64,000 bases of DNA from an uncultured Candidatus Poseidoniales archaeon (GCA_905182715.1 CAJJCP010000020.1:319-64318); one strand, 5' to 3'; shown: positions 1 through 20,512, numbered from the stretch's first letter. Translations and numbers: made by a program. Notes: generated by a model from the sequence alone, not told the origin.

Positions 1-519
1 TCGAACTCTTTCTCTGACGAGCGTGAAACTGCGCCCAATCATTTCTTTTGCTATTGAATTTGATACATTCTCTTGATTGTTATCATGTAATACCATTTTT
101 GTTCCATCCCTTGGCAAAAGCCCTTCTCGATCAACAACTTGCATGATAGTTTCTCCCGGTTTAGGGATGAGTTTATGCAATTCTTGATCAAGAGTACGGA
201 CGGTGAGATGTGCAATCATAGGTATCTCATCAAGATCGATTCCTTCGTCCCAATCGTCATCAAATTCAATACCTGCTCCACCAGCTACTTTCGCAACCCC
301 GACGTAAATCGTTGAATCACGATGGCCGGCAGCGTTACTATCTGAGATCACTGAACCCGTCGCATCATAGATGTCGAACTGACCTTTCGGTGCGAGTTTT
401 AGATCTTGAACCGCTTGCTTCAGAATGGCATTTTGAGGTACTTCGACCCGTTGTTTCTGGGATTGATCGAGGGTATTGGCTACAGTCAGTGGTATCATTT
501 TGTTTTGCATATTTTTCAT
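1..519 (-). CDS. Ubiquitin-like (beta-grasp-like) candidate with internal Gly-Gly; 3' end leaves the window
   Basis: Minus-strand open frame absent from the ORF track because it runs off the left edge. ATG at 519 (in-frame ATG at 510) follows a GGAG. The first 81 aa (MKNMQNKMIPLTV..DSTIYVGVAKVAGG) have Ub/ThiS/SAMP-like length and end in GG (nt 277-282). An acidic linker (AGIEFDDDWDEGIDLDE) and a further domain follow. Confidence 0.4.
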   Translation of the reverse strand, partial: MKNMQNKMIPLTVANTLDQSQKQRVEVPQNAILKQAVQDLKLAPKGQFDIYDATGSVISDSNAAGHRDSTIYVGVAKVAGGAGIEFDDDWDEGIDLDEIPMIAHLTVRTLDQELHKLIPKPGETIMQVVDREGLLPRDGTKMVLHDNNQENVSNSIAKEMIGRSFTLVRERVR

Positions 520-728: not shown

Positions 729-815
729 ATCTTTTCATCTCCGTTTTGTCTTCAAACTATACTTTTGTCAAGGTGTCTTATTTCTGTTAAATTTGGTAAG
801 GGTTCAATATAATAC

Positions 816-947
816 TCACTCTTTCTTATCTTTCAAAGCGGTGTTCATGATCCCGAACCCAGGAATGATTTCCGTGGGTCCGTCTTTACTGTATGAGTTA
901 GCAAATTGCGTTCTCATACTCTGTGCGAATGATTTATCTTTACTCAT
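816..947 (-). CDS. 43-aa mini-protein, repeat copy 2
   Basis: Paralog of 597-728: MSKDKSFAQSMRTQFANSYSKDGPTEIIPGFGIMNTALKDKKE. It has the same leader. All amino-acid differences lie in residues 4-14. Confidence 0.35.
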   Translation of the reverse strand: MSKDKSFAQSMRTQFANSYSKDGPTEIIPGFGIMNTALKDKKE

Positions 948-1022
948 ATCTTTTCATCTCCGTTTTGTCTTCAAACTATACTTTTGTCAAGGTGTCTTAT
1001 TTCTGTTAAATTTGGTAAGGGT

Positions 1023-1445
1023 TCAATATAATTCAGAGTCGATGCTTTCTCCTGTTTGTGAACAAAACAGTTTGTATGAATCTGATTGTCTATCACGGTG
1101 TGCAAAAATCAGCTTTCCATATTTTTGATGCTGATGAACGAGAATTCGAGTTCTCCAAGAAATGTATAATGCTTGTACTAAAATTGTCAATCCAGTAAGG
1201 TACACAATGCAATACGTAATTGGTTTCAGTGATTGAAACACTTTATCCGCCACAGAGATATGATTCTCGAGGTTCATCACCTCGTCGACGGTATGCGGAA
1301 AAATACTCTGTGAAACAACTTCTGAAGTAAATTCAGATTTAATTTCATGTCGATGTGCAGTTAAAGTAAATTCTATGATTTTTATTCCCTCTTTGCACTC
1401 AACTTGAATTGGGTTAGGGATTACTCGATTATCATAAATCATCAA
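1023..1445 (-). CDS. Hypothetical protein with one predicted TM helix
   Basis: 140-aa ORF co-oriented with the cassette. Hydrophobic stretch ITYCIVYLTGLTILVQALYISW. Its start overlaps the end of the 60-aa ORF. Confidence 0.35.
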   Translation of the reverse strand: MMIYDNRVIPNPIQVECKEGIKIIEFTLTAHRHEIKSEFTSEVVSQSIFPHTVDEVMNLENHISVADKVFQSLKPITYCIVYLTGLTILVQALYISWRTRILVHQHQKYGKLIFAHRDRQSDSYKLFCSQTGESIDSELY

Positions 1446-1614
1446 ACATGCACCTTTCCTGTATGTTTCGTAAGTCCCCTGGTCGTTTGAACATGATTTT
1501 CCTCTTCACAGAATGCTCTCCATGCGATTTTATTCTTTTTACGTTTATTTCTAAGAGTAGGATTGATCCATTGTTTCGTTCTAATTCTACGGGATGTGCG
1601 CGACATTGTATCAC
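1432..1614 (-). CDS. Hypothetical small basic protein
   Basis: 60-aa ORF preceded by an AT-rich intergenic region (1615-1720). A competing plus-strand ORF (1448-1675) exists. Confidence 0.2.
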   Translation of the reverse strand: MIQCRAHPVELERNNGSILLLEINVKRIKSHGEHSVKRKIMFKRPGDLRNIQERCMFDDL

Positions 1615-1720
1615 TCTCTATCTTTTATCCTTCCCAAGAGAATATAAATTTAACAAATTTAATAATATGTTATGAACAAGTAAGATTGTTATATTTCTTT
1701 ATCTACTTTCAATACTAAAT

Positions 1721-2473
1721 TTACTTCCAAAGTTGCTCAAGAACCTCAAACGGAACAAAAAACCAAAAAACCAAAATAACTCCTGCGGTGAAAAAGAGGT
1801 ATACGGATAGAAATTCTAGTAAAGTCGCGATCAATTTAAATAAAAGCGCCATTGCTAAAAATAGAATGCATATACCGATTATTGGAAAAACAGTAACATA
1901 AATTATCCAAACTACACCCTCAGTTATCGACGACGAATAATGCAGCTGCTCCAACAACCATCCGCAAAAAAAGATTAATCCGGTGAAGAGATAGGATGCA
2001 AGAACTAAGGGGCCGTCCGACCAGTCATACAACCAGTCCTCCAAAAAACAAACAACCAGATGAAAGACTATCAACGTACCACCATAGATCACTATATCCA
2101 TTGTAAGGGAAGGGCCAAGAATGTAGTTTACTCCCAAAAAGAGTAAATAGATTACTCCCAAAAAGAGTACAATGGACTTACATCGCCATAAAAAAGAAAT
2201 GATGCTTTTTCTTATTGTTATGGGCAATAGAATATCGTTTCTTGAAACTGATTGGCGGTTATAATCTCTCAAATGGATTTGAGCACGTTTATGGTGCTCA
2301 CAAGACCAATGATCATGGTTAGATGAAAAACAGATACTACATCTTTTCCTTTTTTCCACTTGAATGTGAGGTTTATCTTTCACTTGAATGTGAGGTTTGA
2401 CAGGAAAGGACTGAAGTGGTCCACTTCCTTGATAGTCATTAACAAGATCTAAAATATTTATTCCTTCGTCCAT
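1721..2473 (-). CDS. CCHC zinc-knuckle protein fused to a polytopic membrane domain
   Basis: CSICFSSNHDHWSC fits CX2CX4HX4C exactly (aa 45-58, nt 2300-2341). It is followed by about 5-6 hydrophobic helices. Two internal 24-bp tandem duplications are present (KPHIQVKD/KPHIQVEK and LLFLGVIY/LLFLGVNY). Confidence 0.6.
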   Translation of the reverse strand: MDEGINILDLVNDYQGSGPLQSFPVKPHIQVKDKPHIQVEKRKRCSICFSSNHDHWSCEHHKRAQIHLRDYNRQSVSRNDILLPITIRKSIISFLWRCKSIVLFLGVIYLLFLGVNYILGPSLTMDIVIYGGTLIVFHLVVCFLEDWLYDWSDGPLVLASYLFTGLIFFCGWLLEQLHYSSSITEGVVWIIYVTVFPIIGICILFLAMALLFKLIATLLEFLSVYLFFTAGVILVFWFFVPFEVLEQLWK

Positions 2474-2546
2474 AATTTCACTTCACAATGCTTCTGCAGT
2501 TCCTCAATCGATAAGAACGAAGAGAATTTGTTAAATTTAAGAAAAT

Positions 2547-2735
2547 CTAAGCAGGTGGATGGGAATATGAAAGAAGGTAATGTCCACATTCACACTGGGG
2601 CAAGGAAACTCCAGTGAACACAAAACGTGCACGATAAGCACTGACGTCCACGGGAACTTTCCGGCCGCATCTGCAAATTATTATGGAAATCCATTTTCCT
2701 TGAGATTCGACTTCATCATCAATCCAGAGCCTCAT
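2547..2735 (-). CDS. Small Zn-ribbon-like protein
   Basis: 62 aa with CRCG..(24 aa)..CECG. Its ATG overlaps the stop of the upstream E1-like gene in an ATGA (2732-2735), suggesting translational coupling. Confidence 0.5.
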   Translation of the reverse strand: MRLWIDDEVESQGKWISIIICRCGRKVPVDVSAYRARFVFTGVSLPQCECGHYLLSYSHPPA

Positions 2736-4288
2736 TCAATACCCTCCGATGTGGAATCAAGTTGAACGTCCGAATCGGTGGGTTTCGGCGACCAAAGAGC
2801 TTTTTCAAGTTGTTGAACTCCGCTTTTCCGATTCAACTCTCCGTCCGAAAGATTGCAGTATACTTCATTATAGCGTGCATTCCAATTCACTGAACCAATA
2901 CTGGAATACTTCTGACCAGTCAAGCGTTGAAGGGCTGAAATAGCTTGGAGTGAGCCAACAAATGCGTTGGTAATCGCAAGTGAGGAAAGGGGGACTTCTC
3001 CATCTTCTTGACATGAATATACGACCTGATCACGTGCGACTGAAGGGCCGTAGAATTCGACAAGGTTGGTCGTTGAAAACTCTGTATACTGCGCGAATAA
3101 CCCCGTGATTCCGCCATTGACATATGGCTGGTTTTTTCGTGCAGCAATTAAATCTGCAAGAACGCGAGGACGCATAGCATCAAGGCACCCAAGTATTGCA
3201 TCTGTTTGTTCGAGTTGAGTGCGGATTTCATCATCCTTCAACACTTTATACTGTCGAAGGATGATATCTTCAGAGTCTGAAAGTAAATCGTCAAGAGTGA
3301 ATCCTTCGCTACTACTGGTTTCGAGCGAGGGCTGCGGAGGTTGGAGAAGGCCGTCATGAAGTTCATAAGCGATAGAAATTTTGGCATCTGGAAGGTTTCG
3401 ATTCAACCAGTCTTTAGCGGCTTCAATTTTCGGCCTTCCAATATCTGATTCAGAAAAAATAACTTGTCGATTGAGATTATGACGTTCAACTTCCATGTCT
3501 TTATCAAAAACAAGAAGTTGTATGTCGTTAAAATCCGAATTTTTTAATCCATTGACAATGGAATGAAGTGCCCACGTACCGAGACCTCCCGCACCAACGA
3601 CGGTTAGATGGCCTGAGGGGGGGGTTTTTGGTTCTGGGAGCGTAAATCGCATGATTGGAAATTTGGGATGTATATTTTCATCTCCCCCAGATACCTGAAG
3701 TTTCTTGAGAAGTTCTTGCACCAAAGGAGTTTCATCATCCAAACGCATCAATACTCGCTTATGCCCGGTTCCATCGTTTACTGGACGGATGTTAATGTGA
3801 GAATCGATTCCTTCAAGTTGAAAGTCAAGATGATTGATACTACCTTTCATCGAAGGTTCGTTCACACGAACATTCACTGAAACCGATACCTTTGGTACAT
3901 CTACTGGAGTGTAACAATTTGCTCGACGGAAAATTTCGCTCCATATCAAGCACGCAGAAATAGTTGCCAGCGAAGGTTCAAACATCGGATGTGCAGATTT
4001 CTGACAAGGTGTTCCATCGAGAAATACGCCTTCTTGGCCATAGGATACAAAAAGCTTGGAAGCATCATTTTTAAATCCACCAGCAAGTGGTTTCTTGACC
4101 CAGGCAATTGTAAAATCAGGATCTGCAGAGGAGTATGGGAACGATTGAATTCCGAGTTGTTGAGCAATTTGTATCATTGCATCCTTAAACAGTGAAGGAC
4201 TTGAATCGGCATCCTCGAACGTTACTTTAAGAGATTCTAAAATATCCTGATGAACAAGACCTCGTTGACGGCTAAATATATCGCTCAT
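2732..4288 (-). CDS. E1-like (ThiF/MoeB/Uba-type) adenylating enzyme, paralog 2; degenerate N-terminal ThiF-like half plus active C-terminal half
   Basis: C-terminal half has VVGAGGLGTW (nucleotide loop), FDKDMEVERHNLNRQ, GRPKIEAA, CLDAMRPRV and a candidate Cys in YSCQEDG. The N-terminus starts with the ThiF-like FSRQRGLV but has no G-loop. The ATG at 4288 forms an ATGA overlap with the upstream AAA gene stop. Confidence 0.8.
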   Translation of the reverse strand: MSDIFSRQRGLVHQDILESLKVTFEDADSSPSLFKDAMIQIAQQLGIQSFPYSSADPDFTIAWVKKPLAGGFKNDASKLFVSYGQEGVFLDGTPCQKSAHPMFEPSLATISACLIWSEIFRRANCYTPVDVPKVSVSVNVRVNEPSMKGSINHLDFQLEGIDSHINIRPVNDGTGHKRVLMRLDDETPLVQELLKKLQVSGGDENIHPKFPIMRFTLPEPKTPPSGHLTVVGAGGLGTWALHSIVNGLKNSDFNDIQLLVFDKDMEVERHNLNRQVIFSESDIGRPKIEAAKDWLNRNLPDAKISIAYELHDGLLQPPQPSLETSSSEGFTLDDLLSDSEDIILRQYKVLKDDEIRTQLEQTDAILGCLDAMRPRVLADLIAARKNQPYVNGGITGLFAQYTEFSTTNLVEFYGPSVARDQVVYSCQEDGEVPLSSLAITNAFVGSLQAISALQRLTGQKYSSIGSVNWNARYNEVYCNLSDGELNRKSGVQQLEKALWSPKPTDSDVQLDSTSEGIE

Positions 4289-5412
4289 AGTATCACCCAA
4301 TCGTCTTCATCATCCTGTTCTTCGGACCATTCTTCGAGTTTTTCTTCATTTACATGAACGGGTGCAACGGTCCGAAAAAGATGCCTTGACGCTTGGAGGC
4401 CGTGTTCCAAGTCTTCAGTTTTCAAACACACTTCTGTTTTTTCTTCAATGCATCGTCGAGCTGAACAGTGTTTGATTTGGTCAACGAACCCTTTCAATTC
4501 GGCTCCAGTGACCTTATCCCTAAGTCGGTTTGAAGCAGCAATCCATTCTTGATTGGATATCGTCGATGGAATAGTACCGATTTGCATCTGAAAAAATTCA
4601 TAGAAGAGATCATTTGTAAGGGCACCAACCTCAATGCTCTGATTAAAACGCCCTGGACGAAGAAAAGCATCGTCAATTAATTCGGCTTTATTGGTTGAGG
4701 CCATGAGGTAGATGCCATCGGAAGGCTTCAATCCATCCATCATTGTCAAGAGTTGGGCAACGACAGAACTTGAGTGTTGACTTCCCTCTGAACTATCGCG
4801 GTTTCGCCCTATTGCATCGAATTCGTCAAAAAAGAGAACGACTGGTGCAAGTTCTTCCGCCCGCTGAAACATTTCACGAACAGCGCGTTCACTTTCTCCG
4901 ACCCACTTTGACAAGAAATCTGGGCCCGATACTGCCATAAATTGTACATTGGCTAAACTTGCAGCAGCCCTTCCCAACATGGTTTTCCCTGTCCCAGGTG
5001 GGCCGTGAAGTAGAACTCCACCTGAACAAGAAAGGCCCAATGAATCATAGATTTCGGGATTGTTAATTGGATGTACAAGATGATCGATTAACTCCTTTTT
5101 GGCATCTTGGTGGCCAATAACAGAATCCATTTCGATTCGCCCCATTGTTGCAGGACGTCGTGCTTGTGACGCCCATGGAGTAAATTTGAGAAATGCTTCT
5201 TCAAAATCTTCGGTACAAATACGCAAATCTTCAAGTTCATCTTCAGTGTCCTTACCGGGCTCTTTGGCTTGGCCGCCAAGATCGGCGAAGTCCTTCGCCA
5301 CTCGCATGTCGGCACAAATTCGCAATATCTGCTCCCGTGCATCCAACGGTTTTCTTCGACCAATCAGAAAGAGAAACTTCTTCCAATGGCATGTTTTTTG
5401 AATGGATTTCAA
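4285..5412 (-). CDS. Cdc48/VCP-like AAA+ ATPase, D1 lid/linker plus D2 fragment
   Basis: D2 Walker A LLHGPPGTGKTML and Walker B VLFFDEFDAIG. From residue 36 (MRVAKDF..DLRICTEDFEEAF..) it reads as the D1-D2 linker that continues ORF 5252-6481 in another frame. Confidence 0.75.
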   Translation of the reverse strand: MKSIQKTCHWKKFLFLIGRRKPLDAREQILRICADMRVAKDFADLGGQAKEPGKDTEDELEDLRICTEDFEEAFLKFTPWASQARRPATMGRIEMDSVIGHQDAKKELIDHLVHPINNPEIYDSLGLSCSGGVLLHGPPGTGKTMLGRAAASLANVQFMAVSGPDFLSKWVGESERAVREMFQRAEELAPVVLFFDEFDAIGRNRDSSEGSQHSSSVVAQLLTMMDGLKPSDGIYLMASTNKAELIDDAFLRPGRFNQSIEVGALTNDLFYEFFQMQIGTIPSTISNQEWIAASNRLRDKVTGAELKGFVDQIKHCSARRCIEEKTEVCLKTEDLEHGLQASRHLFRTVAPVHVNEEKLEEWSEEQDDEDDWVIL

Positions 5413-6481
5413 GAATACGCTCTCGGCCTTTTACATCTGGATACGGTACGTGAATGCGCCGGTCAAAACGTCCGGCACGAAGCAGTGCAGGATCAATTGT
5501 TTCGAGTAAATTTGTTGAACCAACAACGAGAACTTGGCCTCGATCTTCAAATCCATCCATTTGAATGAGGAGTTCCGTGAGTATTCGCTTTTCCAACTCC
5601 CCACTGCTGTTTTTCCGATCACCCGCAATGGCATCGATTTCGTCGATATAGATGACCGATGGGGCTTGTCGCTTTGCCTCCGCAAATTTTTCACGGAGTG
5701 CTGATTCGGAAGCGCCGTAATGAGCGCTTACAATTTCTGGTCCGCTGATACAAATGAAATTGCATTGTGCCTCACGTGCAAGAGCGCGTGCAAGGAGAGT
5801 TTTTCCAACTCCTGGAGGCCCATAAAGGAGAATTCCTCGCGGTGGTTCTTGACCTGATTTGACATAAATTTCAGGATGGATCAGAGGTACAACTGCAATT
5901 TCCTTAATCGCTTCAATCGTCTCATCAAGACCACCAATATCGTCAAAAGATACGGCGGGAACCTCAATAATTGAACGACGTGACTTTTTCCCAAGGATTT
6001 CAATTTCCGTGTTTGGAGTGAGCCAGCCGTGTTGAGGGCGGCATCGAGTTACTTGAAGTTCGAGTGGTTCTCCGAGTACAGAGACGGTGAAATGGTCATC
6101 TTTTGAAAGATAGATGTCGCGGATGGCTGCTTGAACATGTGGGATCTCCTCTGGCTGAAGTGGACGAGCAGTTGGTTGGAGCCGTACTTTGACAAAGGCT
6201 TGGGCATCAATTTGAGCAAGTTCTACCTTTTCTCCTAGTTGAATTTGAACATTGATTCGGGTAGTGGAACCGATACCGATAGAATCGTATGGGATATTGG
6301 GATCGAGTCTTAGGAATGCCACTGTCGAATTCTTCTCGCCAATAATTCGAAGAGGGGAGCGGCTTTGGAAACCGTTCTCATCAGCTGCTTGTGTATTCAT
6401 ATACACGTCATTTCCAACGCCACCTCGGTGGGTCTCATGGTCAAGTGGGGCAATACAGGTAAATTCAGTCATCGTAATCAT
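5252..6481 (-). CDS. Cdc48/VCP-like AAA+ ATPase, N-domain plus D1 fragment
   Basis: N-terminal Cdc48-N-like region (STTRINVQIQLGEKVEL..VSFDDIGGLDE). D1 Walker A LLYGPPGVGKTLLA and Walker B VIYIDEIDAI. The frame ends just after GADIANLCRHA, where D1 should continue. Confidence 0.8.
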   Translation of the reverse strand: MITMTEFTCIAPLDHETHRGGVGNDVYMNTQAADENGFQSRSPLRIIGEKNSTVAFLRLDPNIPYDSIGIGSTTRINVQIQLGEKVELAQIDAQAFVKVRLQPTARPLQPEEIPHVQAAIRDIYLSKDDHFTVSVLGEPLELQVTRCRPQHGWLTPNTEIEILGKKSRRSIIEVPAVSFDDIGGLDETIEAIKEIAVVPLIHPEIYVKSGQEPPRGILLYGPPGVGKTLLARALAREAQCNFICISGPEIVSAHYGASESALREKFAEAKRQAPSVIYIDEIDAIAGDRKNSSGELEKRILTELLIQMDGFEDRGQVLVVGSTNLLETIDPALLRAGRFDRRIHVPYPDVKGRERILEIHSKNMPLEEVSLSDWSKKTVGCTGADIANLCRHASGEGLRRSWRPSQRAR

Positions 6482-6517
6482 TCCATCTAATAATTTAGTC
6501 GAGTAAGTGTTTTTTTG

Positions 6518-8065
6518 TTAAATATGATATTTACAAGGTTCATCAAACCATGGGGGCTGAGTCGGTGAAGACTTCTCCAGTTCTCCTTCATACCATGTGG
6601 CTCGGAAATTTGGAAGATTCGTATCTGGGTGGAGGTTGATAATCGCCATGAGAGCCATCATCGCTCCAACCCAAGCTGTTGAAGTGACGATTGAAGCGAT
6701 GGGGCGAATTCCTTCTTCGGTACAAGAAATCACTTCGGTAGAACGTGCGCTTTCCCTCCCATAACGACAAACCATGCAACCGTTTTGATCGAAAGTTTCA
6801 ACCACGCCATGATACGCTTCAGTGGCTCCATTAATCATGAGACTACCGTTGTTAATCGCCGCTTCATTCAATATTGTTCGAGCGATCATATTGTCAAGGC
6901 ATGCAAGATAGACTCGACTGCTTTTCAATGCATCACCTAACGGTGAAGGCTCAAGGCCTAAGTCGTCAAAATCATCATTTTCATCTGTAAGACTTTCCGA
7001 AATTAAATGGTGCGGGTTCAGATATTCAAAATAAGACTTTACTTGATTCAGCGGGTTCAATTCTCGGAGTCGTTCGGAGGCTGTTGAAGCTTTTACACAA
7101 CCGAGGTGTTGTTCATTGTAGAGCACTTGCCGGTTCAGATTGTGAAGTTCAATTTCGGGGTCCCCGTCTACAATATGGAACGTTCCTTCCTTCATCTGTT
7201 CGAAAAGAAGCGGTGCACTCCAACTACCGAGCCCACCTGCGCCTAAAATCACAAGTTCATGCCCGACAAGTTCCCACGAGGAATCGAGGGGATGGTTTGG
7301 TTCATGCCATGCAATAAGTCCGATGTCTTCTGAAACTGAGAGGCCTGTTTGAGAAGGTTGCATGGTTCGTGAAAGAAAGTCAAAAACATTCTGATCCGGC
7401 TGTTGGGATGGGCGGTATCGAGCAAGGGTCGCATTTCCGTCACTGGTTAATTGTACGTCAACAAGTGTCCCATCGATGCCAAAGATGTGGCTCCGAACCT
7501 CTTCCAAATCCGTTGATTCCACTCGGCAGGTGACTGTAAACCAGGCATCGCTGATTTTCATTTGAGCCATACAATCTACATCGCGAAGCAGTTGTTGCAG
7601 CATTGTAGCAGCAACAGTAACCCGCATTGAAGGGGTGAGAATGTGCCCTGATGATACCGTTTTTTGAACAAGGAATTCTCGAGAAATCATTGCCCGGGGA
7701 CCATGAGCGAAACCATAGAGGTTTACTTTTTCAGTTTGTTCTGATGGATTTAAGCAGAGGTGATAATCATAATTGTCCCCTTCTACTTCAGTTGTTGATG
7801 AAAACACCTTCCGATGTATTGGACTCAATCGCTCCCAATCACTCCACAACTTTGCATCTGGATAAGCAAGTTTCCAAAACACAGAGTTCGGTGGATGCTG
7901 CGGCTTTACGATTCCAATACATCCGGATTGTTGGCCAATGCCCAATTGAGAAAGGAGAACAACAAGGTCGCTGACACCTCCGGAGCTCCCTGAAACAAGA
8001 ATTTTCAGTTCGGAGAGCCGGTTCTGATTGACGAGGCCTCGTTGTCGAAGAAATATATCATTCAT
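6518..8065 (-). CDS. E1-like (ThiF/MoeB/Uba-type) adenylating enzyme, paralog 1; degenerate N-terminal ThiF-like half plus active C-terminal half
   Basis: ILGAGGLGSW, VDGDPEIELHNLNRQ, GCVKASTA, CLDNMIART, CMVCRYG and SCTEEG. N-terminal half: FLRQRGLVNQ..ILVSGSSGGV (degenerate G-loop). Likely ATG at 8065 (MNDIF); the ORF track starts at a GTG at 8074. Confidence 0.8.
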   Translation of the reverse strand: MNDIFLRQRGLVNQNRLSELKILVSGSSGGVSDLVVLLSQLGIGQQSGCIGIVKPQHPPNSVFWKLAYPDAKLWSDWERLSPIHRKVFSSTTEVEGDNYDYHLCLNPSEQTEKVNLYGFAHGPRAMISREFLVQKTVSSGHILTPSMRVTVAATMLQQLLRDVDCMAQMKISDAWFTVTCRVESTDLEEVRSHIFGIDGTLVDVQLTSDGNATLARYRPSQQPDQNVFDFLSRTMQPSQTGLSVSEDIGLIAWHEPNHPLDSSWELVGHELVILGAGGLGSWSAPLLFEQMKEGTFHIVDGDPEIELHNLNRQVLYNEQHLGCVKASTASERLRELNPLNQVKSYFEYLNPHHLISESLTDENDDFDDLGLEPSPLGDALKSSRVYLACLDNMIARTILNEAAINNGSLMINGATEAYHGVVETFDQNGCMVCRYGRESARSTEVISCTEEGIRPIASIVTSTAWVGAMMALMAIINLHPDTNLPNFRATWYEGELEKSSPTQPPWFDEPCKYHI

Positions 8066-8076
8066 CACAATCACCG

Positions 8077-8608
8077 TTAACGAGCTTCATCCAATGGATT
8101 CGGATTCTTCAACACATCTTCGACATGATGCAATAGAAAACCTAACTTTTCTTTCTCTGTTCGACAGCCGATAAAACTCTCGCTGAAACCAGCCCTGTAC
8201 AAAGGCACAAATCTCCATTTCAGGCAAGATACTGTATCTCCCTTTTCGAAAGATATTTTCATGCTCAATATTTTCACACTTGGGCGATAGCACAAACACC
8301 TGTGGAGTTTCTGCAAAGGAACGGGAATCAATGAGAAGCTGGTAGTTCACTACGCTTTGATCACGACTCGAAACAACACCTTGAAGGTTTACAACAAAAG
8401 CGCCAATTGTATTTTTTGTACTGTGTTTACTGCTAAAGTTCAGCGAAGGGTACATCGTCATTTTGAAACGGTTAAACACTGCTTTGGACAAACTTGAACC
8501 CGAGCACACTCGAAGAGGCACTTTGTATTCACCTGGCTTGCAGTCATTAATTTGTTCAACTCCAGCCGACATGCGGAGGAAGTCCCCATTGTCCATCATA
8601 AATCCCAT
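8077..8608 (-). pseudogene. E2/UBC-like protein, duplicate copy A, frame-disrupted
   Basis: The core (GEYKV..EHENIF..EMEIC) has the same amino-acid sequence as copy B. Two 1-nt deletions just after the candidate catalytic Cys move the conserved tail (GFSESF..VLKNPNPLDEAR) into ORF 8077-8331. The N-terminus is remodelled by indels. Confidence 0.55.
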
Positions 8609-9360
8609 ATTTTTTCTCGTTCATTTTGCTCACTCATCTTTTGAATCTATCAAGTCGTTCGGATTTTATTAAATTTGACATGAAGAGTGGCTTTTTGGCG
8701 TACCCTCAGCACCGATTAAGACGAGCTTCATCCAATGGATTCGGATTCTTCAACACATCTTCGACATGATGCAATAGAAAACCTAACTTTTCTTTCTCTG
8801 TTCGACAGCCGATAAAACTCTCGCTGAAACCAGGCCCTGTACTAAGGCCACAAATCTCCATTTCAGGCAAGATACTGTATCTCCCTTTTCGAAAGATATT
8901 TTCATGCTCAATATTTTCACACTTGGGCGATAGCACAAACACCTGTGGAGTTTCTGCAAAGGAACGGGAATCAATGAGAAGCTGGTAGTTCACTACGCTT
9001 TGATCACGACTCGAAACAACACCTTGAAGGTTTACAACAAAAGCGCCAATTGTATTTTTTGTACTGTGTTTACTGCTAAAGTTCAGCGAAGGGTACATCG
9101 TCATTTTGAAACGGTTAAACACTGCTTTGGACAAACTTGAACCCGAGCACACTCGAAGAGGCACTTTGTATTCACCCGGCATTCCCTGGCCGGAATTTGT
9201 TCGTCTCCAGCCGACGATGCGGAGGAGGTCCCCATTTCCATCATAAATCCCGTATGTTTCTCTCGTTGCATTTGTGCTCACTTCATCGTTTGAATCTTTC
9301 GAGTCGTAATCGGATTTTCATTAAATTTGACATGAAGGAGTGGCTTTTTGCCGTACCCTC
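8081..9360. repeat. Tandem duplication of about 630-640 bp (E2-like gene plus the 3' end of the gene upstream of it)
   Basis: 8081-8707 is homologous to 8722-9360. The central coding core encodes the same amino acids in both copies. The flanks carry substitutions and indels. Confidence 0.85.
8706..9281 (-). CDS. E2/UBC-like protein, copy B (intact)
   Basis: FAETPQVFVLSP..IEHENIF(x13)EICG..LLHHVEDVLKNPNPLDEA resembles the E2 pattern PPxVxF..HPN..C..LLxxPNPxxP. The HxN-to-Cys loop is longer than in canonical E2s (15 intervening residues). Confidence 0.6.
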   Translation of the reverse strand: MSTNATRETYGIYDGNGDLLRIVGWRRTNSGQGMPGEYKVPLRVCSGSSLSKAVFNRFKMTMYPSLNFSSKHSTKNTIGAFVVNLQGVVSSRDQSVVNYQLLIDSRSFAETPQVFVLSPKCENIEHENIFRKGRYSILPEMEICGLSTGPGFSESFIGCRTEKEKLGFLLHHVEDVLKNPNPLDEARLNRC

Positions 9361-10252
9361 GACGATAATCAAGATACGCTTCTTTGCCAGCAGGTGTTGC
9401 GAGCGAAATTGGAGCAACGACCCACCGGCCTTTTACAGTCACCGTGGAAAGGCCTGGTTGAACGATGACGAAAGTGCATCCGAATAGGCGATTCTCGGAT
9501 GCTGGATGTTGTACAGTTCAGCCGATTCTCCCGCTCTCTGGAAGTTTGCAATGAAGAGATGTTGTCCATCACGATAATGCGGGAGGTTCACCAACGCTGG
9601 TGAATTCTTCGACCTGCGTCGCGAACCCGAACTCCCATCCCATGTTGGCCCCTTCTTTGGCAGGCGATTACCCGTGCAATGAGATGCACGTTGCCACCAC
9701 TCCAGCTGGGCTGGCGTCACACTTCCTTTGAAGATACTCTGGCCGACTTTAAGCGTAGAAGGGGTTTTCAAGGCTACATTGGGCTAGTTTGTTATTTTTC
9801 GCGCTGTTGCTGCTCTGTGGCTTGCTCTGTGGCTTGCTCTGTGGCTTGCTCTGTGGCTTGAAATTTATTTGGGACTGGGCTGAGGTCTGGGCGGAAAACT
9901 GCGACTCCCCTGTTACCAGCCACAGTTTGTATCGTACTGCACAGCATCCCCAAAAACCTCGAATCAAGATCGAAGGGTCGGATGATTGGTAGGGCACCCG
10001 GATGTCATTCTTGTCCAGTCTTGGGAGTCAAAGAGAGAGACTGTCGTTACCTTCGAGAGGCGCGCGGGCGAACACAAGGTCGCCATCTCATATATGGCTT
10101 ATTGCCCGTGCGAAAGCGGTACGCGTACGAAAGAACGATTCTTGCTGTTTTCGTTGAGTGACGAATACATTCGCATATTCGCCGACTTCAATCCCGGGAA
10201 TGAGTAGTTTGGTACCCTCCGCTTAGGCGCTCAGAACCCACAAAGGGTCTCG
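9290..10252 (-). pseudogene. Degraded or ambiguous coding remnant
   Basis: No long clean ORF. One minus-strand frame is open from about 10215 to 9749 except for two in-frame TGAs (10088-10090, 10028-10030) and has no canonical start. At least one further frame change near 9490 leads into ..VTVKGRWVVAPISLATPAGKEAYLDYRRGYGKKPLLHVKFNENP.., which ends at about 9285. Confidence 0.3.
9811..9858. repeat. 12-bp perfect tandem repeat x4 (tgctctgtggct)
   Basis: Read directly from the sequence. It encodes (LLCG)n on the plus strand or (KPQS)n on the minus strand. Confidence 0.9.
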
Positions 10253-10510
10253 TTAGCCGTTTGCTTCACCCCATACCGATTCGACCTGTTTCAGCATCCC
10301 CATGCGGATCTTTATGAGGGGCAGTCTCCTATTGTTTGGTGATTCAGTGCATTTCCGTGGGCATCCATTGCATATCGCAAACTCCCATCGCGCGGGTAGA
10401 AGCCCCGATCGAGTCATGGCTTCAAGTACAGTAGAACTTTCATCCACAAGAACGCGTGTTGAAATGGTCTCGTTTGAACCGAGAATAAATTCAACTTCTC
10501 GGAGACCCAT
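10253..10510 (-). CDS. Small protein ending in Gly; beta-grasp-like N-terminus plus a Cys cluster (tentative)
   Basis: 85 aa: VEFILGSNETISTRVLVDESSTVLEAMTRSGL, then CNGCPRKC, with C-terminus ..WGEANG. It is the first gene of the minus-strand cassette. Confidence 0.35.
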   Translation of the reverse strand: MGLREVEFILGSNETISTRVLVDESSTVLEAMTRSGLLPARWEFAICNGCPRKCTESPNNRRLPLIKIRMGMLKQVESVWGEANG

Positions 10511-10616
10511 GGTTTGTGAGATTTTTTGACCGAGATATCATCTGATTTGTGCTAGATTTAATCAAATATTCCGTTGCGCGCAGTGACTAAATATCATAGT
10601 GAAGGGTGGTCTTAGC
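10511..10616. promoter_or_regulatory. Divergent intergenic region between the two accessory gene blocks
   Basis: AT-rich with TATA-like elements (tttaatcaaatatt, taaatatcat). GGTGG lies 8 nt before the ATG at 10617. Confidence 0.25.
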
Positions 10617-11918
10617 ATGCAATTATGTCTCGTAGAATTTACTCGCAAATGCACGACGGGAGTTTTTTTCACGAAGTTCATCGATGCAGTATCAAAGCAC
10701 GAGATTGAAGAAATTGTTCTTTTCCAACCTACAGACCAAGTTTGCCTTCCTCTTCGCGAAGAATTGGAAGCTAAATTCCCAAAAGCAACTCTCCGCTCTG
10801 AGCAACTTGAACCAATCTCAACTGACATGGTTATCCATGAGATGATGCAGCAACCATGGAACTTATTGCGGCAGATCCTTTCTAAACTTGACGAAGGGCA
10901 GGAGTCGCTGTTTGTTCTTGGTCGTGGCGCAAGTCTGCTTCAGCACATGATGTGGCTTAGCGCGGAAATCCGGGGATGTAAAACGATTTCAATCGACGCA
11001 CCAGATGTCGAACTCTTTCATATCGGCACTTCAGAAGTAAATACAGAGATTGCAAGCACGACCCTCGGGGCATTTGTCAGCCTTCATGCACAGGAAATTA
11101 ATGAAAACATTACGGGTAAAAACGGCTGGTTCAGTGCGAATGATATTTCTCAGTTACCTGGAGCTGTTGCTTCGGGAATAAATGCTGCAACACAACTCCC
11201 TTTGAAAAAAGGATATTTGCTCAAAGAAGAGACACAATCCGGCAATACAGTGTATAAATTAACTCCAAAGGGTTGGCACTCCTGCTCTAAAAGCTTCACA
11301 GAAGCGAGAGGGGTTGAAGATGAAGATTTGAAAGAATTATTGATTTCGTTTTCCCGTCAAATTCCAAGTATTCAGATTGGCAATGGTCAAACTGCGGAAA
11401 CCCCTCTGCTAACTTCGCAAATTTCAGGCGCAGGCATTCACGATGGATTGCTTGTCGTTCTCCAAAGAATAGACGATTCGATTGAAGGGAATCATGTGAT
11501 GACACTTGATGATGCGTGTGATTTTTTCACGGAACCGGGTCTTTTAGGAGATTTACGAGCCGCAAAGGAAATATTACGCCAAAGGTGTGAGTACGATTCT
11601 GTTGATGTGAAAAATCATCTCGTCGTCATCAATCCAGTTTACGATGAAGAGTTTCAATTGCTCTTCTCAAACAACCTTTTCGCTGCTCTTGCTGATTTTG
11701 AAAAGGAATATGGGCGACATAACTGGAATTTTGACATCACCAGTCCGCTGAATCAAATCAAAGCCACTGTGTCTTCTTTTTCAAACGCAAGTAACGCTTC
11801 AACATACTTTATCCTCAAACCGAGAGGAGAAAAAGGAGTTGTTTTTGAGAAAGTCGAACGTTCTCGGCACCCCCGCTATGCTCACAAACTCTCTGTTCCA
11901 AACTCGGAGTGCTCTTGA
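10617..11918 (+). CDS. Hypothetical regulator/sensor with Rossmann-like modules and a winged-helix motif
   Basis: LFVLGRGASLLQHMMWLSAEIRGCKTISID (CARF/Rossmann-like, tentative) and GNTVYKLTPKGW (wHTH wing). The reading appears to continue in other frames up to 12286. Confidence 0.4.
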   Translation: MQLCLVEFTRKCTTGVFFTKFIDAVSKHEIEEIVLFQPTDQVCLPLREELEAKFPKATLRSEQLEPISTDMVIHEMMQQPWNLLRQILSKLDEGQESLFVLGRGASLLQHMMWLSAEIRGCKTISIDAPDVELFHIGTSEVNTEIASTTLGAFVSLHAQEINENITGKNGWFSANDISQLPGAVASGINAATQLPLKKGYLLKEETQSGNTVYKLTPKGWHSCSKSFTEARGVEDEDLKELLISFSRQIPSIQIGNGQTAETPLLTSQISGAGIHDGLLVVLQRIDDSIEGNHVMTLDDACDFFTEPGLLGDLRAAKEILRQRCEYDSVDVKNHLVVINPVYDEEFQLLFSNNLFAALADFEKEYGRHNWNFDITSPLNQIKATVSSFSNASNASTYFILKPRGEKGVVFEKVERSRHPRYAHKLSVPNSECS

Positions 11919-12019
11919 GGTCTTGAAAAAGAAACCCGCTGATGGGTATGGCAACATTCTTGTTGCACTCATGCTCCTTGAAAATGTAAAATCTAAGAAA
12001 GAATTGAAGAATCTTCCGT

Positions 12020-12286
12020 TTGATGATGTCGAAGAAGATGATTTGGATGGTGTCGAATGGACTGAGGTCGTTACTTTTGTGCAAGGATCTGAAATGCCCA
12101 TATGACCTCAGCAAAGGTATTATTTCCGGCAGCCAAACTCGGATGAAAGAGCTCATTCAATCAAAACTTGTACGCCGTCATGTCTCTGATGAAGGCTCAT
12201 CGAAAATGCGTTTCGCCCTCACCAATGAAGGCTACCTTGTTGCAAGTCAGTTGTATGACGTTCTTAAGCAGGAGGGGATGGCATGA
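12020..12286 (+). CDS. Winged-helix DNA-binding segment, possibly the C-terminus of the 10617 gene after frame breaks
   Basis: SGSQTRMKELIQSKLVRRHV..MRFALTNEGYLVA is wHTH-like. The ATGA overlap at 12283 couples it to the next gene. Confidence 0.4.
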   Translation: MMMSKKMIWMVSNGLRSLLLCKDLKCPYDLSKGIISGSQTRMKELIQSKLVRRHVSDEGSSKMRFALTNEGYLVASQLYDVLKQEGMA

Positions 12287-12609
12287 CTGAGTTTACTGTT
12301 GACGATTTGCGTAAATTTCACGAACGCGAGGGCGAGGATGCAAATCTCGTCTGCCCCCATTGTGGCCCCGTTTTTACTCTAGTCGATGGAGAGGCAGAAC
12401 TACGTTTGAGGGGTTTTATTAAACATCAGTCATCTCAATCAGACGAAATGTACCTTCTCGCAAAATTTGGAATATGTGTTGGATACCATACTGGCATAGA
12501 GAATATTTCGCCCTATGGAGTTCCAGTCATTCGAGAGGATGACTATTCCCCTAAGCTCGAACGCGCCCCACTCACCCCCGAAGAACTTGCTATTTTCGAT
12601 GAAAAATAG
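12283..12609 (+). CDS. Hypothetical protein
   Basis: 108-aa ORF, start coupled to the preceding gene (ATGA). One CPHCG motif only. Confidence 0.45.
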   Translation: MTEFTVDDLRKFHEREGEDANLVCPHCGPVFTLVDGEAELRLRGFIKHQSSQSDEMYLLAKFGICVGYHTGIENISPYGVPVIREDDYSPKLERAPLTPEELAIFDEK

Positions 12610-12680
12610 ACGCTCCTGCGCGAGTCACACAACCAAGCCCTGAGAAGAAAAATCTTGTCAAAACGAGTGCAACTGCTGCT

Positions 12681-13466
12681 TTGGGAGATTATTTGTATGA
12701 ATTGGATCCACCCTATGTTTTTGAACAATTCATGTCGACTTGGCAGGAAGAAGATGATAACGAAAATCTCGAAAAACTGAATGCACCCAATGAATGGTTT
12801 GATTGTCTATGGCCGTTCATTAAGGATACGTTGGACGTCAAGAAAGAGGCCACAATTAAAGAAAACCTACTCATCACAATTTACCTTCACAAAACTACTG
12901 AAATGAGGCACATAGAGCCACTATGGCTGTTCTGGAAACGGTTTGGAATGGGGAAAAGAGCTCTTGAAAGGGCTATAGCCTCATTCCCCGCTGGATTACC
13001 GAGCCACTTTCAAGACCTTTTCACGAAAATTGAACGTGATTATGAACCTGACCGCTCAACCATCGAATCACTCGTCAATACCCTCGTACTGGATAAAATA
13101 TGCCCGCCAATGAATGGCTCAGAAATGCAAGGGTTCATTCAAAATGCGACGGATTTCCTTGGGAAAATGAAAAGAGCACCTTACGGGAATTTGAGTTGTT
13201 ATGAATTTTTAATTTCGGAGCCCCTTATCGCTGATTCAATGGCAATTGGCGGTCAGACTCTGCCTCATGCAGGAATTATCGAACTCGTTTGCATCTATGC
13301 AACCATGAGACAAAAAACCAGTTCCGCGGATGAGTTTCTAAGAACGGTATTCCCGAGTGAGGCGGGGCCGTTGTGGGAAAATGTACTTTCAAAACATGGG
13401 AAAAAAATCGGAATCGCCAAAACCATCAATTCCCTAATAACTCATATCGAAAAGAACGCGCAATGA
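12681..13466 (+). CDS. Hypothetical protein
   Basis: 261-aa ORF within the co-oriented island. No motif recognised. Confidence 0.5.
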   Translation: MGDYLYELDPPYVFEQFMSTWQEEDDNENLEKLNAPNEWFDCLWPFIKDTLDVKKEATIKENLLITIYLHKTTEMRHIEPLWLFWKRFGMGKRALERAIASFPAGLPSHFQDLFTKIERDYEPDRSTIESLVNTLVLDKICPPMNGSEMQGFIQNATDFLGKMKRAPYGNLSCYEFLISEPLIADSMAIGGQTLPHAGIIELVCIYATMRQKTSSADEFLRTVFPSEAGPLWENVLSKHGKKIGIAKTINSLITHIEKNAQ

Positions 13467-14836
13467 ATAATACAAATGGAAGTGAGATTGTGGACGAGGG
13501 GATTGTTGAAAATACTCGAAAATACATATTCGACCCTAGAAACAATTTACCCCCTCATGAAATTGAAAACTTGACCCCTTACATGCAAAAGCAAAAAACC
13601 ATAGAAACACTGGAAGAAAAAGGTCACTTTCGAGAGATTGAAGGTGAGATAGGTCCACTGCAAAATATTATCCGATCACCGCCTCATGGTTTATCCAGCA
13701 AAACTAAATTGTGTAGGAGATTATATCTTTTTCTAGATGTGAATTTCAGTATAGCAAAGGGAGATGAGCCAATAAAATCATATGAAAGTTCGTTTAAGGA
13801 CCTCGTTCAAGACAGAATCCAACGGGCCTCATGGAATACAGATGAATCAGATTACGATATCGAGTTGCGAACTCTAAGCGAAGACGCTGATGTCAGCAGT
13901 GAACAATGGAGATCGATCACAATGAGATTAGCCGATCTAACCCCCGGTTCACGATTGTTCGTGTTTGACAATAAAGAAGAGATAAACGATGTTAATGATG
14001 TTGAGGATTTACTTTTATCAAATCATATAAAACTTAGAGAACTCAATGATAAAATTGGAGTGAAGCATGGACCTCTCGAAATGCTGGGCCTCTTCTCAAA
14101 TTCGTTACAACAGGCCTTTAGCAATCCTGAAATGTTTAGAGAGTTTAAGGAAAAAGTAGAAGGAAAAACCGAAGTTATAATCCTCCCCACTTCTTTGAAA
14201 CCAATGAATACAAAACTCCATTTTGAGCGTGCTGGCATTATTGAAGCATTAGTTGCCTCCCACAAAATCGGCGGCGAATATGTCGAATGGATTGATTCAT
14301 GTCTCGAAAAGGTGTTCAAACGAATCAACTCGCATGAAAAACCATTCACTAAGAAGCATGTGGCCATATCCACGAGTACCTTTGTCTCGAAAATTTTTTC
14401 ATCGCCTAGCCGAGAAAAAAAACCTGTAAACCTGGATTCTGAACCGCTAGGTAAAAATAGAATTCAGTGCAGTATTTCAAAAATTAATTCAGTCATCATG
14501 GCTGAAGGTCATGAGAGATTAAATTATTCATGCTGCTCAGATATTCAAAAAGCAATTACGGAGCTGGTTCACCGATCTATGACTTACATTAACACATTGT
14601 TTGAAAAAGAAAGTCAATTCCGCGCAATTATCTTTGCATCTGTAATTAACATGAACGAGGAGATTCGTGGTAGTCTCCATAAAGGCCCAGAAAATGAATT
14701 AACATCTGAAAGCAAAAATACAACAGTCGAAAGTCGAATTAAACAAATGTGGAGCAATTTATCCTCGCTGGATTCAAAGAACATTTGTGGAATACAAACC
14801 ATGACTGCCAAACGTGGACAAGTGGCAAACCCGTGA
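13463..14836 (+). CDS. Hypothetical protein
   Basis: Likely start MNNTNGS at 13463, forming an ATGA overlap with the upstream stop. The ORF track extends to 13373. Confidence 0.5.
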   Translation: MNNTNGSEIVDEGIVENTRKYIFDPRNNLPPHEIENLTPYMQKQKTIETLEEKGHFREIEGEIGPLQNIIRSPPHGLSSKTKLCRRLYLFLDVNFSIAKGDEPIKSYESSFKDLVQDRIQRASWNTDESDYDIELRTLSEDADVSSEQWRSITMRLADLTPGSRLFVFDNKEEINDVNDVEDLLLSNHIKLRELNDKIGVKHGPLEMLGLFSNSLQQAFSNPEMFREFKEKVEGKTEVIILPTSLKPMNTKLHFERAGIIEALVASHKIGGEYVEWIDSCLEKVFKRINSHEKPFTKKHVAISTSTFVSKIFSSPSREKKPVNLDSEPLGKNRIQCSISKINSVIMAEGHERLNYSCCSDIQKAITELVHRSMTYINTLFEKESQFRAIIFASVINMNEEIRGSLHKGPENELTSESKNTTVESRIKQMWSNLSSLDSKNICGIQTMTAKRGQVANP

Positions 14837-15356
14837 GGGAGCAATACTGAACGGGTGGAAGGAGACCTGCAAGTCTTGGGAGTTTAAGGCAAGGAGTAAA
14901 AGTTCGAGGCAAATTAAACAAATTCTTGGAATGATTCTCGAAGATGATGCAGATATCGAACAAATCATAAAGGATTGGAAAGGTTTTCTTGAACAGTTCA
15001 AGAAGAGTGAAGTGAGGGAAAAGAAATACGGATATGGAGCGCTCAGTGAAGTGCCCAAATACGGTTTGTTTTTACTTTCCCAAGGCGTATGTGAACCTCT
15101 TCGTGAGTTATTTGCTGAAACCAAAAAGGTGACGCATGGCGATTTATTTTTATTGAATAAAATTCCCGGAATGGATCTTAATTTTAGACGACTTTACATT
15201 GATATCAAAGATAAGAGGTATATACCTGCAAGTAAGGCTTACGAGATTATAAAGAAGTTAAATGACGCGCTAATCGATTGTAATTGGGAAAATGACGAAT
15301 CGGAAGAAATTTCTATTGACCCAAGTACAGAACCTCTCGAATGGTGGAGTGATTAA
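14814..15356 (+). CDS. Hypothetical protein
   Basis: 180-aa ORF. It overlaps the upstream gene by 23 nt. Confidence 0.45.
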   Translation: MDKWQTREGAILNGWKETCKSWEFKARSKSSRQIKQILGMILEDDADIEQIIKDWKGFLEQFKKSEVREKKYGYGALSEVPKYGLFLLSQGVCEPLRELFAETKKVTHGDLFLLNKIPGMDLNFRRLYIDIKDKRYIPASKAYEIIKKLNDALIDCNWENDESEEISIDPSTEPLEWWSD

Positions 15357-15357
15357 T

Positions 15358-19131: not shown

Positions 19132-19143
19132 CAGCATTCACCA

Positions 19144-20493: not shown

Positions 20494-20512
20494 AAATATA
20501 TTCACAAAAGAG

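Follow-up and report, generated by a model that had tools for sequence, protein, structure and literature searches.

Canonical eukaryotic E1 enzymes (Uba1, UBA6, UBA7; NAE1-UBA3; SAE1-SAE2) combine an inactive and an active adenylation domain in a pseudo-dimer with one catalytic site, a module that is their hallmark and that prokaryotes were believed to lack until the description of BilD in 2023-24. In BilD, the E1 encoded by bacterial Bil (ISG15-like) anti-phage operons (PDB 8TYZ, 8TZ0; Chambers et al., doi 10.1101/2023.09.26.559546), one polypeptide holds both domains; MoeB, ThiF, UbaA, Uba4 and Uba5 are proteins of about 250-400 aa that dimerise through two identical active domains. Here we describe two genes, E1-A and E1-B, from a 64,000-nt stretch of DNA of a Candidatus Poseidoniales archaeon (the window, whose coordinates are used throughout); they belong to a gene cluster that occupies its first 10.5 kb on the minus strand. 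We consider it highly probable that they encode two paralogous, self-contained E1-type enzymes, each with a dead N-terminal and an equipped C-terminal domain, belonging to a pathway of ubiquitin-like (Ubl) modules, an E2-like protein, a JAB peptidase and a Cdc48-like ATPase. Because bacterial BilD already has the fused inactive/active architecture, that architecture is not in itself new, contrary to the uniqueness among prokaryotes implied by an earlier annotation of this DNA made from the sequence alone (the sequence-only reading); what is new is that the enzymes are archaeal, duplicated, devoid of the helical Cys domain and of the ubiquitin-fold domain (UFD), operon-linked to Cdc48, and set among fused beta-grasp-GG modules.

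The interval singled out by the sequence-only reading, 2732-8065, runs exactly from the stop codon of E1-B to the ATG of E1-A. The two genes and their predicted domains are:

6518-8065, minus strand: E1-A ("paralog 1"), single-chain E1-like enzyme, 515 aa from ATG 8065, intact open reading frame (ORF)
7307-8065, minus strand: E1-A putative inactive adenylation domain, residues 1-256, with the RQRGL motif and a degenerate glycine loop, SGSSGG
6518-7306, minus strand: E1-A predicted active adenylation domain, residues 257-518, with invariant motif columns and sequence matches to ThiF, MoeB and PaaA
2732-4288, minus strand: E1-B ("paralog 2"), single-chain E1-like enzyme, 518 aa from ATG 4288, intact ORF
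about 3626-4288 and about 2732-3625, minus strand: E1-B putative inactive and predicted active domains, respectively, with the codon of C430 at 3011-3013

Both genes are intact in the window, and each has an alternative start: GTG 8074 would extend E1-A to 6518-8074 (518 aa), the ATG at 8065 being the one used in conspecific contigs, and TTG 4300 would extend E1-B to 2732-4300 (522 aa). The two proteins align over almost their full length at 23% identity (BLASTP, E 5e-26), so that the proposed pair of paralogs of ~520 aa is borne out, as is the placement of a Cdc48-like gene (4285-6481) between them. Every motif quoted for the pair is present: FLRQRGLV / FSRQRGLV, SGSSGG, GAGGLG, D.D, NLNRQ, K, CLD, SCTEEG / SCQEDG and CMVC. 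Database relatives at E <= 0.001 number 160 for E1-A and 124 for E1-B, nearly all of 500-550 aa, and E1-A is 100% identical to P0001, a protein present on at least 23 metagenome contigs. By source names and genome titles both families are placed in Marine Group II (MGII) archaea (Poseidoniales), namely Poseidoniaceae and Thalassarchaeaceae, also labelled 'Thermoplasmatota'. A few relatives lie on contigs binned as Gammaproteobacteria or Legionellales in ocean sets of metagenome-assembled genomes (MAGs); because their sequences fall within the archaeal family, mis-binning is the most likely explanation.

The C-terminal halves are readily recognised in sequence searches. Pfam ThiF matches residues 273-480 of E1-A (E 7.6e-33) and 231-466 of E1-B (E 8.1e-24), in both cases in the C-half only, and searches of PDB sequences with the full proteins match PaaA, ThiF, Uba4, MoeB, UBA3, SAE2 and Uba5 through the C-halves alone. 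Invariant in the alignments of both families are GxGxxG, two aspartates after strand 2, NLNRQ, a lysine, the Asp of 'CLD' and the Ser-Cys of SC(T/Q)E(E/D)G. These correspond in E1-A to G278xGxxG283, D303/D305, N312LNRQ316, K328, D394 and C451 (codon 6722-6724), and the invariant positions of the E1-B family are G236xGGxG241, D266, D268, H274NLNRQV, K291, D374, R379, S429 and C430. With Pfam matches and all ATP/Mg motifs invariant, the C-halves hold as the complete ThiF/MoeB adenylation domains they had been taken for. They resemble MoeB, ThiF, UbaA, Uba4 and Uba5 in these ATP motifs, in a crossover-loop Cys and, in E1-A only, in a CxxC-type zinc site. The degenerate ThiF-like N-half of about 230-260 aa, fused in cis, is additional to anything in MoeB, ThiF or UbaA, and the best NCBIfam scores, 94.9 and 64.5 bits, fall below the family cut-offs of 159-647 bits; the proposed distinction from those homodimeric enzymes is thereby supported.

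The N-terminal halves match nothing in Pfam, PADLOC, NCBIfam or PDB sequence searches; since the Pfam ThiF matches are confined to the C-halves, the comparison with ThiF profiles suggested by the sequence-only reading returns a negative answer. They keep none of the ATP/Mg motifs (D.D, NLNRQ, K and CLD are all missing from the aligned N-half of E1-A). Their N-terminal motif RQ.GL..Q is nearly invariant, and in the longer form RQ.GL..Q..L...V..G it is the pattern of a ThiF start: R10 (codon 8045-8047), Q11, G13 and Q17 are kept in at least 90% of E1-A relatives, and R11 and Q12 in at least 90% of the E1-B family. R10/R11 occupies the position of the arginine that reaches the active site from the inactive domain or partner subunit in MoeB, eukaryotic E1s and BilD (Arg9).

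AlphaFold2 models were built for full-length E1-A (86-sequence alignment; predicted local distance difference test, pLDDT, 90.2; predicted template-modelling score, pTM, 0.91) and for its residues 1-256 alone (pLDDT 92.6), and both were compared with the PDB using Foldseek. Every one of the top 50 matches to the N-half model is an adenylation domain from the E1/ThiF superfamily; E2 folds are absent. The matches comprise Uba5, Uba4, Atg7, MccB, MoeB, ThiF, the N-terminal part of Uba1, UBA6 and UBA7, and the inactive subunits SAE1 (1y8q_A, 9qn5_A) and APPBP1 (1yov_A), with E values from 1.6e-5 to 8e-4 and probabilities of at least 0.93, mostly 1.00; Uba5 is the best (E 1.6e-5, TM score on the query, TMq, 0.42). 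The predicted fold of the E1-A N-half is therefore not unrelated to ThiF, and a Cap2-like E2 module, which had been offered as an alternative, is rejected for want of any E2 in the top 50. The "80-100 aa insert" formerly placed between the halves belongs instead to the N-terminal domain, as its second part, and is no linker. For the full-length model the structural matches were (TMt, TM score on the target):

UBA7, 8oif_A: 688 columns, TMq 0.56, E 1.7e-16; top match
BilD, 8tyz_A / 8tz0: about 600 columns, TMq 0.51-0.53, TMt 0.52-0.54
UBA6 and Uba1, several chains: 616-660 columns, TMq 0.42-0.47
ThiF, 1zud: 242 columns, only one half covered

The best full-length TMq values (0.53-0.56) are at least what the C-half alone, about 270 of 518 residues, could give. 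For BilD chain 8tyz_A the alignment spans 608 columns (TMq 0.53, TMt 0.54) at an identity of about 12%.

A link through sequence is provided by bacterial proteins. Full-length relatives of the archaeal pair were found in a scan of one genome per species, and one of them, the E1 of locus L038, has an N-half for which phmmer returns Uba1 (both domains), UBA7 (inactive domain), ThiF and SAE1 at E values of 1e-7 to 1e-4. The beginning of this protein can be aligned with the beginning of E1-A. Between the E1-A and E1-B families, too, the N-halves are homologous (HHalign probability 98.5%, E 2.5e-15, 193 columns), and therefore the fold assignment extends to E1-B, a further reduced version. Together the N-half and full-length models, the L038 bridge and the homology of the N-halves support a pseudo-dimer in one chain, with a ThiF-derived N-half predicted to be inactive and a C-half predicted to be active, and in this respect the degenerate-plus-active arrangement proposed from the sequence stands. 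When the E1-A N-half was searched exhaustively with phmmer against 1.84 billion representatives, only 27 proteins came back, mostly family members or fragments, with a few weak matches; those few left aside, the search revealed no stand-alone inactive subunit and no new architecture.

The two families also share a candidate catalytic residue in the crossover loop, C451 of E1-A and C430 of E1-B. It is the Cys of SCTEEG / SCQEDG that the sequence-only reading had nominated; it is invariant in both families, and in PDB sequence searches C430 falls opposite the Cys of 'TCVEAG' in MoeB, at the C187 position. Because pLDDT falls below 50 at residues 452-454 of the E1-A model, the loop around C451 is presumably mobile. 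The second candidate of that reading, the CMVC of E1-A, is better explained otherwise. Its cysteines, C433 and C436, are kept together with C514 and H517 close to the C-terminal end, each of the four being retained in at least 90% of E1-A relatives, and a zinc site is known from MoeB, the SUMO and NEDD8 E1s and BilD (doi 10.1101/2023.09.26.559546); given this co-conservation and the BilD/MoeB precedent, CMVC is read as one ligand pair of a probable MoeB/BilD-type zinc site, and a catalytic role for it is ruled out. In the window's E1-B the CxxC is replaced by NLVE, the motif having been lost in its clade and kept in distant E1-B relatives (CMVC/CMLC). Only 14 residues separate C436 from C451, and no helical insertion is present at the crossover loop in the E1-A model or in the alignments; past its final active-domain helix E1-A has 38 residues left. 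The active domain does carry an acidic, low-confidence insertion, which follows the strand coming after the lysine helix and precedes the helix leading up to 'CLD', at about residues 355-378 of E1-A (window about 6941-7012, pLDDT 51-72) and, longer, at about 316-366 of E1-B; it varies across the family and may be a docking loop.

The genes around the pair, and their state in the window, are:

4285-6481, minus strand: Cdc48-like double AAA+ ATPase (N domain, D1, D2), between the E1-A and E1-B genes
8706-9281, minus strand: E2-like candidate, copy 1, 191 aa, motif PQVF..P...HENIF...EICG, with a beta-grasp remnant (..VPLRVCSG) before the motif
8087-8608, minus strand: E2-like candidate, copy 2, 173 aa, a tandem duplicate, its C-terminal part frameshifted in the window
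9337-10510, minus strand: disrupted gene whose intact homologs encode a conserved protein of 361-375 aa, beta-grasp-like at its N-terminus; the only open part is an 85-aa ORF at 10253-10510
2547-2735, minus strand: zinc-ribbon-like protein, CxCG...CxCG, 62 aa, its start overlapping the E1-B stop
1721-2473, minus strand: multi-pass membrane protein, 250 aa, with an N-terminal CCHC zinc knuckle (CSICFSSNHDHWSC)
between the 250-aa membrane protein gene and a 219-bp tandem repeat, minus strand: gene for a 140-aa protein
1-510, minus strand: start of a tandem beta-grasp (di-Ubl) gene, which runs off the window at position 1

The order E2-like, E1-A, Cdc48, E1-B is conserved among related loci down to about 30% identity, with a JAB gene of 511-551 aa a few genes further on; in L004, the most distant locus examined, two extra genes separate Cdc48 from E1-B. 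In intact conspecific loci the Cdc48 stop overlaps the E1-B start by 4 nt. The Cdc48-like protein matches Pfam AAA twice and AAA_lid_3, with weak matches to CDC48_N and CDC48_2; because an ortholog scores 492.8 bits on TIGR01243, below the cut-off of 802.65, it is regarded as a divergent member.

The E2-like gene lies directly upstream of E1-A in all loci examined. Its product carries a conserved motif, H-E/V-N-I ... E-I/L-C, and aligns with the E2-like genes of the bacterial E1-E2-JAB operons L038 and L034; homolog searches with it recover close relatives only. The window holds two copies (repeats 8080-8614 and 8721-9259, 99% identical and 641-645 nt apart), and two intact copies of 183 and 182 aa occur in L082, L084 and L085, with a single copy in L083: the population genuinely carries this duplication.

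Beta-grasp modules ending in ..(V/I)(A/I)GG turn up fused to different partners (E1-A, E2-like, JAB) in different lineages. In the window's di-Ubl gene, module 1 ends ..YVGVAKVAGG and module 2 begins about 20 residues on. Orthologs of this gene are Ubl-Ubl-E2-like-type fusions in L001 (315 aa) and L004 (298 aa), and a Ubl-Ubl-JAB fusion in L003 (547 aa) and likewise in L082; an ortholog of the window's E2-like gene is a Ubl(..VAGG)-E2-like fusion in L003 (225 aa). The loci bearing these fusions place them at 9319-9996, 16260-16748 and 19336-20979 (L003), 18347-19243 (L004) and 17694-18641 (L001). The E2-like proteins of the window's own clade (182-191 aa) retain a Ubl remnant only, ..VPLRVCSG/RSG in place of GG. 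In one lineage the fusion is to the E1 itself: in P0096 (644 aa) a Ubl ending ..ARIAGG runs into the RQLGLV start of an E1-A protein, and this Ubl shares 36% identity with the cluster's first Ubl (E 1e-15). This favours activation of this Ubl type by E1-A and is the strongest evidence for it here. Related loci contain both beta-grasp-GG modules and a JAB protein; the corresponding JAB gene here either lies outside the window or is the di-Ubl gene, truncated where the window starts. The 219-bp tandem repeat (508-1032; 2.4 copies, 97% matches) occupies intergenic DNA between the di-Ubl and 140-aa genes.

Downstream of E1-B, the gene for the 62-aa zinc-ribbon-like protein is kept in the same position in L002 and L085, and it and the 250-aa membrane protein are both kept beside E1-B in close relatives. 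The knuckle of the latter is of the retroviral type, CX2CX4HX4C; the protein is 100% identical to its counterpart in L083, and its L001 ortholog has two or three CCHC knuckles. Neither protein has a family match (Pfam and PADLOC, for the 62-aa protein). Both could be substrate-recognition or E3-like components.

On the other side of the cluster, the broken gene at 9337-10510 is matched in two frames by a 361-aa protein of L083 (tblastn), and its N-terminus resembles proteins of 304 aa in L001 and 361 aa in L082. A perfect 12-bp repeat (4.2 copies, TGCTCTGTGGCT, 9811-9860) lies inside it and encodes KPQS repeats on the minus strand. Beyond it a divergent plus-strand operon at 10599-21475 encodes conserved proteins of about 563, 394, 630 and 2,100 aa and accompanies the E1 cluster in the close relatives L001, L082 and L083; its products have no family matches except faint ones to AAA_19 / NPHP3_N on the ~2,100-aa protein. 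G+C is 0.37-0.38 over 14-22 kb, against 0.45-0.49 elsewhere in the window. The operon could be a functional partner or a piece of a variable island.

Several of these genes are frameshifted. A shift at 5259-5282 leaves the Cdc48-like gene as two ORFs (409 and 375 aa), with protein identities of 100% and 98.8% to an intact 733-aa ortholog on either side of it, and the gene is intact (730-733 aa) in L082-L085, contigs from other samples that encode an identical E1-A. Between 9337 and 21475 nearly every long gene has one or two frameshifts relative to intact orthologs, namely those corresponding to the 361-, 563-, 394- and 630-aa proteins and, as its split ORFs suggest, the one for the ~2,100-aa protein. 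Protein identity beside the shifts is 100% for the 630-aa gene and 83-94% for the 563- and 394-aa genes; over 8.8 kb the DNA of the broken region matches L082 at 96% identity and shows 77 gap positions, and genes further along the window appear intact. A long-decaying pseudogene locus is made less likely by the 98.8-100% identity on both sides of the shifts in the Cdc48 and 630-aa genes and by the intact conspecific contigs. In view of that high flanking identity and those contigs, assembly indel errors or very recent lesions are more likely.

Set beside the described systems, E1-A and E1-B resemble BilD most in layout: an inactive N-terminal and an active C-terminal adenylation domain are predicted within one polypeptide, an arginine stands near the N-terminus of the inactive domain (R10/R11 here, Arg9 in BilD), a probable zinc site is present (in E1-A, though not in the window's E1-B), and there is no UFD. 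The operon partners of BilD are an E2, a JAB protein and beta-grasp Ubls that need C-terminal processing, to which the E2-like candidate here and, in related loci, a JAB protein and beta-grasp-GG modules may correspond. There are also differences. BilD has a mobile alpha-helical Cys domain of about 80 aa in the crossover loop, whereas here it is absent and the Cys follows the CxxC by 14 residues; beyond the low identity noted above, the PADLOC BilD model has no match in E1-A and reaches E1-B only over the nucleotide-binding motif (residues 231-301, E 2.1e-3), and the PADLOC E1-E2 models match in the adenylation motif region only. The host is here an archaeon, each locus has two paralogs flanking a Cdc48-like ATPase gene, the JAB protein, at 511-551 aa, is large, and Ubl modules are fused to the E2-like protein, to JAB and even to the E1. 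Because they lack that helical domain and do not fit the BilD sequence model, we do not file E1-A and E1-B in the BilD family.

The bacterial relatives may form an undescribed sister group. The operon of L038 (Anaerolineaceae MAG, 1134-4225) encodes an E2-like protein, an E1 of 544 aa, a JAB protein and a Ubl ending ..YQGG plus 14 residues, and that of L034 (Aminicenantes MAG, 736-5005) an E1 of 612 aa, an E2-like protein and a JAB protein of 669 aa. These operons are simpler in that Cdc48 and a second E1 are both missing; the E1s they encode are full-length relatives of the archaeal pair at 25% identity, lack the helical Cys domain and match PADLOC BilD weakly.

With canonical eukaryotic E1s the archaeal proteins share the predicted pseudo-dimer, and the proposed coupling to a Cdc48-like ATPase recalls the functional link of those E1s to Cdc48/p97-type unfoldases. 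At 515-518 aa they are about half as long as the eukaryotic enzymes (about 1,000 aa), and they have no FCCH/SCCH, four-helix bundle or ubiquitin-fold domain, the Cys lying within the adenylation domain. They thus appear, from the models and alignments, to be hybrids of a canonical-type pseudo-dimer and a non-canonical loop cysteine. Among archaea, UbaA-dependent sampylation in Haloferax is functionally linked to Cdc48 and proteasomes (PMC4895103). Bub (6E/DUF6527) and Type II CBASS Cap2 systems likewise fuse Ubl, E2, E1 and JAB in varied combinations and use a peptidase to release the Ubl (doi 10.1101/2024.11.21.623953), and the Ubl-E2-like fusion reported here parallels BubAB. However, catalytic cysteines are missing from Bub enzymes, whose intermediates are oxyesters (doi 10.1101/2024.11.21.623953), whereas the Cys here is invariant; Cap2 is a homodimerising E2-E1 fusion, and no N-terminal E2 domain is predicted in E1-A or E1-B; and there is no DUF6527 protease in the archaeal cluster, those systems in turn having neither Cdc48 nor two E1s.

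We propose the following course for the reaction. The dead N-terminal domain would pack on the ThiF/MoeB-type C-terminal domain in the place of the second subunit of a MoeB/ThiF homodimer and donate its N-terminal arginine (R10 / R11, RQ.GL motif) to the ATP site of the active domain, which would adenylate the C-terminal Gly-Gly of a cluster-encoded beta-grasp Ubl. The loop Cys C451 / C430 would receive the Ubl as a thioester, no separate Cys domain being needed, and the Ubl would be handed to the small E2-like protein encoded directly upstream. The large JAB peptidase would free Ubls from their fusion precursors and reverse conjugation, and the Cdc48-like ATPase encoded between the E1 genes would act on the conjugates.

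This interpretation must be tempered by several results that weigh against it. The profile of the E1-A family N-half, compared with that of the C-half, gives an HHalign probability of 0.2%, so that an internal duplication is not demonstrable from E1-A family sequences alone. All structural evidence is predicted, and the structural matches of the N-half have moderate TM scores (0.35-0.44) with root-mean-square deviations of 5.5-6.5 A, as expected for a degenerate domain. The E2-like protein matches no E2 in Pfam or PDB searches, whether with single sequences or profiles, and the zinc site is missing from the window's E1-B. Finally, with frameshifts in Cdc48, one E2-like copy and several neighbours, the locus as sequenced may not be functional.

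The silence of the Pfam, PADLOC and PDB sequence searches on the N-half, together with the HHalign result, would suit an N-half that is not derived from ThiF at all, being instead an E2-like (Cap2-type) or unrelated domain whose resemblance is an artefact of the model; the N-terminus of BilD was itself once annotated 'E2 family C'. We find this scarcely credible in the face of 50 top Foldseek matches that are all E1/ThiF adenylation domains without one E2, of the L038 bridge to Uba1, UBA7, ThiF and SAE1, and of an N-terminal pattern that is that of a ThiF start. It is also very unlikely that the enzymes activate sulfur carriers of the MoaD/ThiS type, for cofactor synthesis or tRNA thiolation in the manner of MoeB, ThiF and Uba4, and conjugate nothing to protein: the best C-half sequence matches are indeed ThiF, MoeB and Uba4, and the loop Cys stands at the MoeB/ThiF position, but the NCBIfam scores all fall far short of the family cut-offs, a rhodanese domain is missing, and the neighbours are Cdc48, JAB, E2-like and fused Ubl-GG genes with no cofactor-biosynthesis genes among them. 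Somewhat less improbable, though we would still not expect it, is an obligate heterocomplex in which catalysis falls to one of E1-A and E1-B while the other regulates or serves as a scaffold, perhaps docked on the Cdc48 hexamer. The two genes always occur together flanking Cdc48, and the window's E1-B has lost the zinc site and has the more reduced N-half; however, every adenylation residue and the loop Cys are invariant in both families, on which ground both E1s are likely catalytic, the usual dimer interface would already be occupied within each chain by its own pseudo-partner domain, and in L004 two extra genes lie between the pair.

More serious is the question of function, on which the same architecture could serve an antiviral defence module like Bil, Bub or CBASS-Cap2 in place of housekeeping Ubl-Cdc48 turnover. 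Among characterised relatives that share this E1 architecture, the closest are anti-phage systems, and defence would agree with the adjoining divergent operon and its ~2,100-aa protein with faint AAA_19 / NPHP3_N matches, with the low-G+C flanks and with the tandem duplication of the E2-like gene. Against it stand the synteny kept across Poseidoniaceae and Thalassarchaeaceae down to 30% identity, the position of the L003 cluster near HisRS and FtsZ, and PADLOC matches that are weak and limited to the nucleotide-binding motif; we hold a defence role to be possible and, overall, unlikely. Keeping to two catalytic E1-type enzymes, we give close to even chances to the idea that the duplication arose because the two serve two different Ubl modules. 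A fuller picture, in which the Poseidoniales cluster is a complete eukaryote-style Ubl-E1-E2-Cdc48 pathway, with two orthogonal E1s each having its own beta-grasp modifier and with Ubl precursors fused to pathway enzymes, serving cellular protein turnover and not phage defence, is offered tentatively and remains doubtful.

In the searchable literature we found no published description of a two-E1/Cdc48 cluster; for Poseidoniales or Marine Group II together with ubiquitin or E1, the sole find was a 2015 survey that noted RING and UCH domains in one MGII single-cell genome. The occurrence of a fused inactive-active E1 design in one of the most abundant marine archaeal groups widens the known distribution of this architecture, and its minimal form, canonical in the pseudo-dimer but not in the loop cysteine, is relevant to the question of how the E1s of eukaryotes came to be assembled. 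Two E1s, an E2-like protein, JAB, Cdc48 and Ubl-GG modules make up a compact, testable system for the study of E1-Ubl specificity after duplication, and the cluster is suited to asking whether Ubl-directed unfolding by Cdc48 predates eukaryotes. Poseidoniales lie outside the Asgard/TACK lineages; if the complete pathway outlined above is real, a fused inactive-active E1 and the coupling of Ubl conjugation to Cdc48 would have existed in archaea independently of, or before, eukaryotes.

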